This document shows, in pieces, positions 56,067-61,121 of a DNA stretch of 64,000 bases. The stretch comes from an uncultured Clostridia bacterium (lineage in GTDB: Bacteria > Bacillota > Clostridia > TANB77 > CAG-508). The stretch is from positions 2,769-66,768 of the forward strand of contig CAUWKC010000003.1 of assembly GCA_963559365.1 (NCBI GenBank), written 5' to 3'. Numbering within the stretch: the first letter of the stretch is position 1; each line of letters starts with the position of its first letter. Both the position numbers and the translations under genes were made by a program. The notes under the pieces are model-generated. The model saw nothing but the letters and a program-made list of their open reading frames with translations. It ran no database searches and had not been told where the DNA came from.

Positions 56067-59000
56067 TTATTGTGGTACTCTTAGTATAATAGTTGCACTA
56101 TTCTTACTTCTTCCAGATGTACTACTTTCTGGTAGTTCAGCTGTTCCTGCGGCTCCTATAGAAGAATTTCCTCCACAATTATATACTGTAAATCTATCAC
56201 TATTTGGATTGTTTTCAGCAATAATTTCCACATGTCCTGGATATGCTACAATGTCCCCTGGTTGTGCCTCATTAACTGATACTGTTTGCCAACCATAAGG
56301 ATTACTTTCAAAAGTATAAGATGTCCATTGATACATTCCATCTGAAAATCCTTCTACACCTGCATTTAGCAATACCCATGTAACATATGAACTACAATCT
56401 ATTGTTCTACCATTTGGATTAGGTAATGTAATACCTGCTTGTGCATAATAATATCCATTTAATCTTAGATATTCATGAAGGCTAACAGCATTTTCTACAA
56501 TACTGCCTCCTCCGCCTAGTCTTCCAAATTCTCCAAAAATTAGTTGCCAATATTCTAGTTGTTGTTCATATAACCATGCTGTATAATCTGCTTTCTCTTG
56601 AATTGTGTAATCATCTACACCAATTCTGTGAACATTACCACATTTTTCATTAAATTGTGTTCCATAAATTACTTTTAAGTAATAATTTCCACCATCACCT
56701 GAACTTCCTTCTCTATGCTTTGTATTACTTCCACATAAATCAGAATATATACTTAACATTCCTTTTAAAGTTCCAGGTTTACCATATCCATTTGAATTAC
56801 AATTTGCTGCTTCTCTTTCATTATATCTTTTTAGAATTTCTTGTTCTTGCCAAGTTCCACTTCCTTCTAAATATGATTTGAAAGTATTTGCTAATAATTT
56901 AACACCTTCTTCAAAAGATCCTATATAATGAGACGACGCTCCATTGTAAGTTGCTAATCCCCAGAAGTTTTGATCTCCTCCTCCAGGAGATTCAAATCCA
57001 CTTTCTTTTAATGCCATTGTTATAATTAATTCTGGATTAACTTCATATTGTACTCCCCAATCATATATTTGTTCTGCTCTGGATAAAAAGTTTTGTTGGA
57101 AATGTATATTACCTGTTTTGTCATAATAAGCTTGTAGTGCTTGTACAAATTTTTCTTTAGTTAATACACTTTTTGTTAAAGATATATCTACTGAACCATA
57201 TCCTAAAGAATTAAAATCATTATATTTATATCTTTCATATTCAATAGCATAATCTGTTTTTCCATAATCTTCGCCTAATGCTTTATATAATAAATATTTT
57301 GTTAAATCTACCATATTTGCTGTTCTAGGTTGTCTTTGTAAAATATTAAATAAATAACTTGGTTTCATTCTTTTTCTTGCTTCTATACTTTCTTTTAATA
57401 TTTTAGTAAATTTGTGTTCATTTCCTACAACAAGAGATTCCCCTGTTTCATATTTATTACTGATAGTTCTAACAGTTGTTATCTTTCTTTTTTGTTTTAT
57501 ATTAGCATCATATACACGTTGCACTTCTCCTTTATCATTATTCCAGACAAAATTTTGATTTACTTTATCTACTTCTTCACCTAAATAATTAGTTGTAACT
57601 GTAGTAGAATCATTTACTTTTCCTTTTACATTAGCAATTGCATTTATTAATGTATTATCAAAATTAGTTTCTACTTCACTGTCCTTAACATTATCTGCTA
57701 CATAAACTGGTATATCATTACCATTGCTAGGAGAATAATTACAAACACAGGAACCATTTTCATCTTGTATAAATATATCAATCCAATTGTTTCCCCAACG
57801 ATGATTTGAATCTCCTGTATCCTCTACAGTATAAACATTTCCATTTATAACTACTTTTTTCCCTTTTCCTAATGGTCCTGAACTATTTTGATAATCTTCT
57901 AAATGTACAGCTATAGTATGATTTGGTTTTGCGTCAACTCCTGATGCTGTTGTTACTTTACCTGGTGGCGTATTACAAGCAGAACAATAGGTTGTAATTT
58001 TAAAATTACCTATTAAATCTCCTTGGTCTGCTGTTACATTATTACTAGCTCCTATAGTTGCTGAGGTATAACTAGTTTCTTTTTGGAATTTTACAAACCA
58101 ACAATCTGCATAAGTAAGCTCTATTGTATTACTTACACTTTCTTTTATTTTAGTATCTGTTGAAACAGTATACCAATCTGAAGTTGATATTTGATAGCCT
58201 TGATAACTACCACTTATAGTTGCTCCTCTTCGTACAATATCTCTGTTTTGAGTATCGACAACTGTTTTTACAGTAGTTACATTATCTTCAATTGCTATAA
58301 TAAATTCACTATTTATTGCTAAATCTGCTAAAGAACTTACAAAGTTACTGTCTTTACAATCTATTAGCCAATTAATTAGATATTCATATGGCATCATATA
58401 TTTTTGTAATACTGGTAGATAATTAACTGGTGAATTTTTCAGAATTTTTATTCCTTCTTCTGTTGTATATGACCATTTAGCTGTAATTAATTTCATGTCT
58501 TTATCTAAAGTAAATACTTCTAATGCTTTTTCATTATTTTCTTCTACATATTTATTAAAAGTTTTTTCTGGTACATATTTTAAATCATAGATTTTAGAAT
58601 TTACTGCTGTTGCTACTGAACCAGAAGTAGAAATCGTAGCATCACCATATCCTCTATTTTCCATACCTAAATATTCTAAAACACCATCTACAATCCCTTT
58701 AGCATAGTTTTTTAACCCACTATCTGAACTTAAAACTGCTCTATCTGTTTCATTATCTAAAAATCCTCCTTCTGCTAAAACACAAGGGAAACCACATTCT
58801 GACGAATTACCAATTGATTGTAAATTACCATTATTAGTTTCTGTATCTGGATGATGACCTCTTTGTTGTAATCCCATAGCATTTGAAATTGTTCTTACTA
58901 ATATTTGACTAAATTCTTTTGATTTACTGTCTCCTGCTTTATAATAAGTATCTACTCCACTTGCCTTATGACTTTCTGTAGCATTAAAATGAATTACTAC

Positions 59001-61121: not shown

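Follow-up and report, generated by a model that had tools for sequence, protein, structure and literature searches.

A six-module peptidoglycan hydrolase-type protein encoded in a chromosomal, conjugation-derived type IV secretion gene cluster of an order of gut Clostridia

Introduction

Why should a single bacterial protein carry six modules of the peptidoglycan-cleaving type, and what is its place among the type IV secretion genes that surround it? The question is raised by a 64,000-nt stretch of DNA (the window) from an uncultured Clostridia bacterium (Bacillota; Clostridia; TANB77; CAG-508; assembly GCA_963559365.1, contig CAUWKC010000003.1, positions 2,769-66,768), in which one uninterrupted frame encodes a protein of 1684 amino acids (aa), here called the hydrolase.

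56067..61121, minus strand: hydrolase, whole open reading frame (ORF), six peptidoglycan-hydrolase-type modules

A first-pass annotation had described the protein as a membrane-anchored hydrolase of a conjugative apparatus, with five wall-cleaving domains. We find six modules on a dedicated scaffold, and a chromosomal setting. The hydrolase is likely to be the wall-breaching component, in the position of VirB1, CwlT or PrgK, of a domesticated type IV secretion system (T4SS) that is vertically inherited throughout the order. Judged from its genes, this T4SS probably forms a pilus of the VirB2 type.

Results

One anchored polypeptide with six hydrolase-type modules

The start codon of the hydrolase (ATG) is preceded by a strong Shine-Dalgarno sequence, AGAGGTGA, and the stop codon of the upstream gene lies 18 nt away. 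One 14-kb contig from an independent public gut-metagenome run covers the whole gene with 81 differences and 0 gaps, and a twin protein on record (P0002) has the same length and is 97% identical, with 53 differences. From N- to C-terminus, the following parts were delimited.

60897..61019, minus strand: N-terminal membrane anchor, aa 35-75, the sole hydrophobic stretch of the protein, after a K/R-rich N-terminus
60642..60896, minus strand: conserved N-terminal alpha/beta domain, aa 76-160, with a predicted local distance difference test score (pLDDT) of 80-90, outside any Pfam family
60114..60581, minus strand: VgrG3-like lysozyme-type module, aa 181-336, PF21277 (T6SS_VgrG3-like_C)
59886..59981, minus strand: conserved linker, aa 381-412 (FQG.I.IRRVTPNK...), from homologue coverage and consensus
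59262..59864, minus strand: LAS-type metallopeptidase domain, aa 420-620, with a Pfam M15_4 core at 531-609
58677..59225, minus strand: Amidase_3 module, aa 633-815, PF01520
58056..58634, minus strand: scaffold part A, aa 830-1022, with long beta-strands of 23-31 residues in the AlphaFold2 model
57687..58055, minus strand: 3D / double-psi beta-barrel module, aa 1023-1145, from fold and homologues
57198..57686, minus strand: scaffold part B, aa 1146-1308, a second long-strand pair and a helical bundle in the AlphaFold2 model
56514..57197, minus strand: GH73 / CwlT-type lysozyme-like module, aa 1309-1536, from predicted fold and profile, candidate catalytic residue E1373
56070..56513, minus strand: NlpC/P60-CHAP cysteine peptidase module, aa 1537-1684, from Pfam on the isolated piece, with C1576, H1630 and N1648

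The single ORF with one hydrophobic stretch is in keeping with the membrane-anchored polypeptide proposed at first pass. In the AlphaFold2 model this stretch is part of one long helix (aa 30-84); together with the K/R-rich N-terminus, the single hydrophobic stretch and the long helix therefore place the protein as N-terminally anchored, with the remainder outside. The small domain that follows (aa 76-160) had no match in Pfam.

All five domains named at first pass were recovered, three of them above Pfam cut-offs and two by fold and homologues. Peptidase_M15_4 (PF13539) matches aa 531-609 at E 9e-18 (65 bits against a cut-off of 25), within a domain modelled at pLDDT 85-95. The hallmarks of M15_4/LAS peptidases are the motifs H-x6-D and D-x-x-H, and the corresponding residues are present and kept in the aligned homologues at H536 (30/41), D543 (34/38), D603 (31/37) and H606 (30/37). 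Amidase_3 (PF01520) matches aa 633-815 at E 1.5e-30 (106.9 bits, cut-off 27), and the predicted fold superimposes on 4rn7 with a VIA Z-score of 27.0 and a root-mean-square deviation (rmsd) of 1.7 over 180 aligned residues. Enzymes of this family use His/Glu/His zinc ligands and a catalytic Glu; the corresponding residues are present here and conserved in the aligned homologues at H639 (27/34), E654 (32/34), H711 (25/34) and E784 (23/35). At the C-terminus, CHAP/NlpC_P60 at aa 1570-1647 falls below the cut-off when the whole protein is scanned, and the C-terminal piece passes for both families (CHAP 28.9 bits, cut-off 26; NLPC_P60 24.5 bits, cut-off 23). Its model matches CwlO 8wt3 (Z 11.6), in keeping with a papain-like fold, and the Cys-His dyad is found in nearly all aligned homologues (C1576 in 43/44, H1630 in 43/45).

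The two remaining domains were assigned on an AlphaFold2 model of aa 820-1684 (865 aa; 46 aligned sequences; mean pLDDT 78.2). Pfam 3D (PF06725) gave no match to aa 1030-1150 even at E<=10. The modelled stretch matches YuiC 4wjt (Z 8.4, rmsd 3.6, 91 aligned) and MltA 2g6g (Z 8.3), scores that taken alone are close to the noise level of Z. The same stretch aligns with the PF06725-positive parts of homologues P0004 and P0008 (1.9e-12 and 1e-13), and its BFVD matches are annotated '3D containing protein' with probability 1.0. Similarly, the Pfam Glucosaminidase and lysozyme families had no match to aa 1300-1540 at E<=10, and the model of aa 1309-1536 matches the GH73 enzyme LytB 7pj3 (Z 11.9, rmsd 3.2, 142 aligned); at the corresponding position, homologue P0044 has a PF01832 match. 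The last two modules considered together (aa 1309-1684) match CwlT-like 4hpe (VIA Z 11.4, Foldseek E 5e-5), and the family profile matches the S. aureus CwlT-like chain 4fdy over both C-terminal domains (E 3.9e-6). The presumed catalytic motifs are thus present in the M15_4, Amidase_3, GH73-like and NlpC/P60 modules; presence and conservation of these residues were computed here.

The region at aa ~170-350, left unassigned at first pass, is filled by a sixth module. T6SS_VgrG3-like_C (PF21277) is above its cut-off of 27 bits both on the whole protein (35 bits) and on the isolated piece (41 bits), and 21/30 ESM-Atlas neighbours of the segment bear the same family. Sequence searches with aa 170-370 found this module among homologues only in the 97% twin. 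The VgrG3-like fold was not obtained by AlphaFold2 (pLDDT <50 over aa 158-377, with a single homologue as input), because the only homologue is that twin. Judged by family, the modules of the hydrolase may in principle act on bonds of the glycan, amide and stem-peptide classes, which agrees with the broad capacity suggested at first pass.

Between and around the modules lies a beta-rich scaffold. The model shows it as very long strands (23-34 residues each), paired on either side of the 3D module. Scaffold parts A and B had no match in Pfam, and Foldseek and VIA searches with the 865-aa model, which contains the scaffold as one of its parts, returned nothing convincing for its fold. A likeness to secretins or phage tails was considered and set aside, as the matches had low probability or a low TM-score (Foldseek, VIA, BFVD).

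The hydrolase gene lies within a conserved T4SS cluster

To read the full cluster, the contig was extended beyond the window end. In order of transcription, the cluster encodes a 204-aa protein, three VirB2-like pilins, PrgI, a 409-aa membrane protein, a 660-aa VirB4-like ATPase, proteins of 782 and 312 aa, the hydrolase, a 443-aa anchored protein, a Big_2/dockerin surface protein and a cohesin protein. From VirB4 to the 443-aa gene, neighbouring genes are 17-23 nt apart.

L003 10906-12219, past the window end, minus strand: three tandem divergent VirB2/TrbC-like pilin genes, by Pfam
62097..64000, minus strand: 782-aa protein with a T4SS_pilin-like domain, running off the window, VirB6-like by position only
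61140..62078, minus strand: membrane protein of 312 aa, a conserved partner, its gene separated from that of the hydrolase by 18 nt
54712..56043, minus strand: 443-aa N-terminally anchored protein, 23-nt gap downstream of the hydrolase, weak Pfam matches only
51619..54447, minus strand: surface protein of 942 aa, three Big_2 domains plus dockerin, tblastn match in 3/35 related loci
50908..51600, minus strand: 230-aa cohesin protein with a C-terminal hydrophobic segment, adjoining the Big_2/dockerin gene

Two of the pilins pass the TrbC/VirB2 cut-off (46 and 38 bits against 27.9) and all three pass T4SS_pilin, and the cluster of a congener holds four such genes. PrgI, which is VirB3-like, was matched at E 3e-5, below its cut-off. 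By NCBIfam, the VirB4 resembles the conju_CD1110 family, and the pilins resemble pilin-like proteins of a Mycoplasma integrative and conjugative element (ICE), below cut-off. Domain annotation of the ~20-kb cluster revealed neither a relaxase nor an integrase nor a coupling protein. Searched against the PDB, profiles of the 312-aa and 443-aa neighbours returned nothing meaningful, and complex prediction of hydrolase aa 1-170 with these two proteins did not yield a verdict (score 0.00).

We searched 35 related loci from public gut metagenome-assembled genomes by tblastn. The same gene order was found, with VirB4 in 29/35, the 782-aa protein in 29/35, the 312-aa protein in 32/35 and the 443-aa protein in 33/35; the misses of VirB4 and of the 312-aa and 443-aa proteins are loci with short flanks. 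Identities were 83-89% for VirB4, 51-66% for the 409-aa protein, 41-55% for the 782-aa protein, 35-45% for the 312-aa protein, 29-44% for the 443-aa protein, 30-80% for the pilins and, over the best segment, 32-63% for the hydrolase.

The 230-aa cohesin protein is likely the anchor for the dockerin protein, and the two genes (50908-54447, minus strand) look like a cohesin-dockerin display pair that closes the T4SS cluster, a possible adhesin. A 1604-aa adhesin comes after the T4SS cluster in a different genus of the family (L069, G018:C1, 3-4814, minus strand); it combines a thioester (TED) domain with four Cna_B domains and a DUF11 domain.

The T4SS is chromosomal and present throughout the order

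Upstream, the cluster is flanked by DUF4446-parB-parA-gidB, and another contig of the genome carries gidA-mnmE-jag-yidC-rnpA followed by dnaA-dnaN-recF-gyrB. In a congener with a contiguous assembly (G053), the order dnaA..mnmE-gidA-gidB-parA-parB-DUF4446-pilins can be read directly. The cluster adjoins oriC in this genus. As a general rule for the order, this adjacency was rejected: in 5 genomes representing other genera or families, none of par, gid or dnaA was found in the 15-17 kb upstream.

VirB4 was found in 61/61 family genomes, representing 50/50 genera, and in 95/101 genomes of the order (E<=1e-80), at 58-84% identity and with one strong copy each. Among good-quality genomes of the order the count is 87/90, and all five families are represented. 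Outside the order, 2/144 other genomes of the class had a match at E<=1e-60, with 30-33% identity. Across 81 genomes, VirB4 identity follows GyrB identity with a Pearson r of 0.86, VirB4 being on average 4 points lower; this correlation is descriptive only, because related genomes are not independent. The genomes of the order are small (0.9-2.1 Mb). VirB4-like copies of ~30% identity occur in most family genomes. In the genome studied, one such VirB4-like ATPase (574 aa, ~30% identity to the VirB4 of the cluster; contig C26 (L055), 14191-17140, plus strand) is followed by a ParA/MinD-like ATPase of 420 aa, and the pair lies just after dnaA-dnaN-recF-gyrB.

A coupling protein is encoded elsewhere in the window, 40 kb from the hydrolase cluster.

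14672..16156, minus strand: unlinked VirD4-type coupling protein among housekeeping genes, PF02534, E 6e-82

It passes NCBIfam conju_CD1115 (score 431.6, cut-off 250), and a VirD4-like gene is present in 99/101 genomes of the order. The gene comprises a 494-aa frame and a separate 163-aa ORF (16137-16628) just upstream; relatives are 600-730 aa long, and either a frameshift or a fault of assembly may have divided the gene here.

Marker genes put the completeness of the genome at 100%, and a search of it for relaxases of families PF03432, PF02486, PF03389 and PF08751 gave no match. Other contigs hold two relaxase genes of the MOBV (Mob_Pre) type (C36:4109-4723 and C1:9166-9756). Throughout the order, MOBV is patchy, occurring in 32/101 genomes and often in several copies. 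It seems to be carried by small mobilisable elements and not to belong to the machine, and such elements may exploit the chromosomal T4SS.

The hydrolase belongs to a rapidly reshuffled modular family

Homologues were sought in a 5.8-billion-protein set, with 8000 candidates scored. The hydrolase, presented at first pass as an unusual single enzyme, has at least 130 homologues at E<=1e-3, with module numbers that equal or exceed its own, and the 120 listed homologues (990-2187 aa) were used for BLASTP mapping onto it. The longest, P0033 (2187 aa), has seven Pfam-detected modules plus a 3D-like stretch. Four parts are constant among the listed homologues: the anchor and small domain (aa 40-160, covered in about 96-114 of the 120), the linker (aa 381-412, about 97-107), scaffold A (aa 830-1022, all 120) and scaffold B (aa 1160-1320, 106-119). 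Between these constant parts the enzyme modules are swapped. About 18 Pfam hydrolase families occur among the homologues, including Beta-lactamase2, M23, M15_4, Amidase_3, 3D, GDSL esterase, Phage_lysozyme2, Phage_lysozyme, GH3, Hydrolase_2, C39-like, Glucosaminidase, Amidase_5, CHAP and NlpC/P60.

The scaffold and anchor family itself, as defined by sequence search, is restricted in distribution. A scaffold-only search of 1.84 billion sequences returned 663 cluster representatives at E<=1e-3, 255 at 1e-10 and 99 at 1e-30. In the family genomes, the scaffold query gave weak partial matches in 18/61, downstream of VirB4, with a best foreign E of 1.5e-11.

Turnover of the modules is evident within the genus. 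In four congeners, whose VirB4 proteins are 84-87% identical, hydrolases in the same slot have differing module sets.

Congener hydrolase of 1175 aa: NlpC/P60, beta-lactamase-like, Phage_lysozyme2
Congener hydrolase of 1184 aa: NlpC/P60, beta-lactamase-like, Glucosaminidase
Congener hydrolase of 1486 aa: beta-lactamase-like ... CHAP
Congener hydrolase of 1206 aa: Amidase_3 ... NlpC/P60

Six genomes from other genera or families were compared. Four of them have simpler proteins at this position (CHAP only; M23 only, twice; a 475-aa Glucosaminidase plus CHAP protein), and in the remaining two the large ORFs scanned included no recognised hydrolase. Within the order, the multi-module form is therefore a local elaboration.

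At the strain level, two further patches of the hydrolase vary.

57515..57598, minus strand: strain-variable patch, aa 1175-1203, turn of a long beta-hairpin, diverged at equal length in runs X7 and X10
58184..58261, minus strand: strain-variable patch, aa 954-980, at the second long hairpin's turn, from X7 and X10 contigs and DSSP of the model

The first patch (aa 1175-1203) accounts for 21 listed differences in runs X1 and X6, and 9/53 differences of the twin P0002 fall at aa 1185-1202. In the second, 67 other nucleotides replace 76 nt in X7 and X10, with the frame kept. Differences between near-identical strains are thus concentrated in two patches, both at long-hairpin turns of the AlphaFold2 model.

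Recent cassette exchange was considered and rejected. The GC content at third codon positions is uniform across the hydrolase modules (7-11%). Against the 35 loci, blastn of the hydrolase gene gave 65-77% identity only, and the VgrG3-like part had no match in them. Uniform composition and low DNA similarity to other species throughout the gene, with no sign of recent transfer, therefore indicate that the shuffling of modules is not recent.

Other features of the window

An AAA_14/DUF4143 ATPase gene lies directly after the T4SS cluster (49439-50725, minus strand), and a second is found at 3078-4310 (minus strand). A serine recombinase at 4406-5999 (minus strand) is apparently split, with the Resolvase N-terminal part at 5334-5999 and Zn_ribbon_recom at 4406-5071. 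At 2-2057 (minus strand), a UvrD-type helicase is present as two overlapping ORFs (N-terminal, 1254-2057; C-terminal, 2-1312), a split that may reflect a frameshift or an assembly error.

Discussion

A probable wall-breaching component of a machine proposed to be domesticated

VirB1-like proteins of Gram-positive systems locally open the peptidoglycan for the secretion channel (PMC12857230). We propose that the hydrolase would do the same for the T4SS encoded around it. Its single N-terminal helix would tether it in the membrane beside the machine, to which it is presumed to dock. The non-enzymatic, beta-rich scaffold of two long hairpins would form a stalk that bears the modules, with the VgrG3-like, M15_4 and Amidase_3 modules on its membrane side and the 3D module inside it. 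The CwlT-like pair, a GH73-type lysozyme and an NlpC/P60 peptidase, would sit at the far end, kept off the membrane by the long hairpins, whose variable tips would be exposed. If each module is active, together they may open the peptidoglycan locally and so create a passage for the channel and, probably, for a VirB2-type pilus. The wall that it cuts may be the cell's own only, or also that of a contacted cell.

Several points weigh against this proposal. Vertical inheritance was read from identity gradients and not from a reconciled tree. The genome encodes two MOBV relaxases, so a role of the machine in DNA transfer retains some standing. When the modules were scanned for missing catalytic residues, an outcome that at first pass had been named as a challenge to the domain assignments, the motifs were present in four modules, and the Asp triad of the 3D module proved incomplete: its first residue is His1073 (His in 20/30 homologues, Asp in 3/30), and the other two are kept (D1101 in 36/43 and D1115 in 31/33 aligned homologues). 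In MltA, catalysis depends on the third Asp. In the GH73-like module, the candidate E1373 sits in the motif ALKESG and is kept in only 23/45 aligned homologues. Finally, in PrgK from pCF10, the relative studied best, only one of the three domains is an active hydrolase, and the others look regulatory (PMC12857230); the number of modules is therefore not the number of activities.

The alternative that survives best is that the hydrolase is aimed at contacted bacteria, opening their wall for delivery or uptake of material through the pilus or T4SS, in killing, feeding or epibiosis, and that the module set and the hairpin tips determine which partners can be attacked. We regard this as possible, though doubtful. 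The killing or broad-range role suggested at first pass draws some indirect support from the hypervariable nature of the gene. It would account for domain sets that change between congeners while VirB4 remains 84-87% identical, for the two hypervariable patches at the long-hairpin turns, and for homologues that add M23, beta-lactamase-like, GDSL esterase and GH3 modules. The small genomes (0.9-2.1 Mb) fit as well, as does the parallel to the T4SS of Patescibacteria, where hydrolases are described as essential for epibiotic growth (PMC12102498, PMC12857230). Against it, these Clostridia sporulate and build their own wall, with spoIIR, sleB/ypeB, murF and ddl in the window; all extracellular parts of the cluster diverge fast, which pressure from host immunity or phages would explain equally well; and no immunity gene was identified. 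The extreme module turnover beside an ATPase conserved like GyrB is hard to explain by maintenance of the cell's own wall alone; attack on exposed parts by phages or by the immune system of the host is another possible cause. In its strongest form, which we offer tentatively, the T4SS of the order would serve physical interaction with other bacteria, and the hydrolase would be target-facing, its cassettes and tips setting the range of partners in an arms race, and would not be a mere housekeeping factor of assembly.

A hydrolase of a conjugative element, an ICE or plasmid, would open donor and perhaps recipient walls, and its many modules would widen the range of recipients, as the first-pass annotation had envisaged. 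Part of that view is sound, namely the link to a T4SS. The surrounding genes have conjugative ancestry (VirB4 near conju_CD1110, VirD4 passing conju_CD1115, pilins near those of a Mycoplasma ICE), the C-terminal pair is CwlT-like, and the MOBV relaxases, in this genome and in 32/101 genomes of the order, could use the machine in trans. The conjugative element itself did not stand. The ~20-kb cluster is without relaxase, integrase and coupling protein, and four relaxase families were not found in a 100%-complete genome. Nearly every genome of the order has VirB4 and VirD4, each as a single strong copy, and VirB4 divergence parallels that of GyrB; MOBV, unlike the T4SS, is patchy and multi-copy. 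In the congener, the cluster comes directly after dnaA..gidAB-parAB. These findings largely refute the mobile-element form of this explanation, and we consider a conjugative function of the hydrolase improbable.

That the protein is a general autolysin or a sporulation or cell-separation hydrolase, its adjacency to the T4SS being incidental, is very improbable: Amidase_3, NlpC/P60, GH73 and 3D are common in housekeeping autolysins and spore-cortex enzymes (YuiC, CwlD), but the related loci and four congeners keep the gene in the same slot, downstream of VirB4 and flanked by the 312-aa and 443-aa genes, the gaps of 18-23 nt are operon-like, and the family-specific anchor and scaffold are restricted to 663 cluster representatives among 1.84 billion.

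Significance

The genomic context adds more interest than the number of domains alone. A machine kept almost like GyrB throughout an order would be another example, independent of the first, of conjugation machinery that has become a core cellular organ in reduced genomes. If this is true, a kind of T4SS thought unique to Patescibacteria among monoderms exists in a whole order of small-genome, spore-forming gut Clostridia, and the use to which these abundant uncultured bacteria put it becomes a tractable question. According to a review of December 2025, Gram-positive T4SSs lack VirB2-type pilins, Patescibacteria excepted (PMC12857230); the present cluster, with its three VirB2/TrbC-like genes, is a counter-example in Bacillota. 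The hydrolases form a family that reaches six to eight modules on a dedicated scaffold, reshuffled between species of one genus, and would constitute a natural library of wall-degrading enzyme combinations. A literature search, with most subscription journals outside its coverage, found no paper on this Clostridia T4SS or hydrolase family.

Comparison with known systems

The closest parallel to the machine as a whole is the T4SS of Patescibacteria. As described for Patescibacteria such as Ca. Southlakia epibionticum (Quinonero-Coronel et al. 2025), it is encoded on the chromosome, often near dnaA, with arrays of VirB2-like pilins, an unlinked type IV coupling protein (T4CP) and no relaxase (PMC12102498, PMC12857230). 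Peptidase and lysozyme genes downstream of virB4 are reported to be essential for epibiotic growth (PMC12102498, PMC12857230; Wang et al. 2023 as cited in PMC12102498). The two systems share a monoderm host with a small genome, a chromosomal T4SS derived from conjugation with no linked relaxase, a divergent VirB2-like pilin array by virB3-virB4, a T4CP far from virB4, wall hydrolases downstream and, in some lineages, a position near the replication origin. They differ in that the present hosts are spore-forming Bacillota and that one giant modular hydrolase is encoded. One ESM-Atlas neighbour cluster is mostly from a Patescibacteria phylum, which we treat only as a lead towards a possible place of this VirB4 in the monophyletic Patescibacteria clade.

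Two likenesses concern parts of the protein. The N-terminal variable module falls, by its sequence, in the Pfam family of the C-terminal domain, a lysozyme-type effector, of Vibrio cholerae type VI secretion system (T6SS) VgrG3, above cut-off, but it is internal to a membrane-anchored T4SS protein and not on a T6SS spike. Lytic modules on an elongated beta-rich structure recall the virion-associated lysins of phages (phi29 gp13-type 'morphogenesis protein 1 hydrolase'), and the BFVD matches of the hydrolase include tail proteins and gp13-like hydrolases. No phage genes are nearby, however; the matches are explained by shared lytic domains, and the TM-scores of the scaffold are low.

The C-terminal ~375 aa are the same two-domain unit as CwlT of ICEBs1 and the related structures 4hpe (C. 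difficile CD630_03720) and 4fdy (S. aureus). The gene, too, lies downstream of VirB4 and of a large polytopic protein, as in the ICEBs1 gene order, conE-conG-cwlT. Compared with CwlT, the hydrolase is ~1300 residues longer, with four further modules, a beta-rich scaffold and an N-terminal helix anchor, and its locus is chromosomal, order-wide and without a relaxase. With PrgK (pCF10) and TraG (pIP501) it shares an N-terminal anchor, several extracellular wall-hydrolase domains and a gene near VirB4 (PMC12857230). PrgK and TraG have two or three domains (SLT/muramidase, LytM, CHAP), and at most three have been described for membrane-anchored VirB1-like hydrolases of Gram-positive T4SSs (PMC12857230), whereas the hydrolase has six, partly of other families. 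Its C-terminal unit is thus CwlT-like and its overall logic PrgK/TraG-like, and in module number, scaffold and shuffling it exceeds the described classes.

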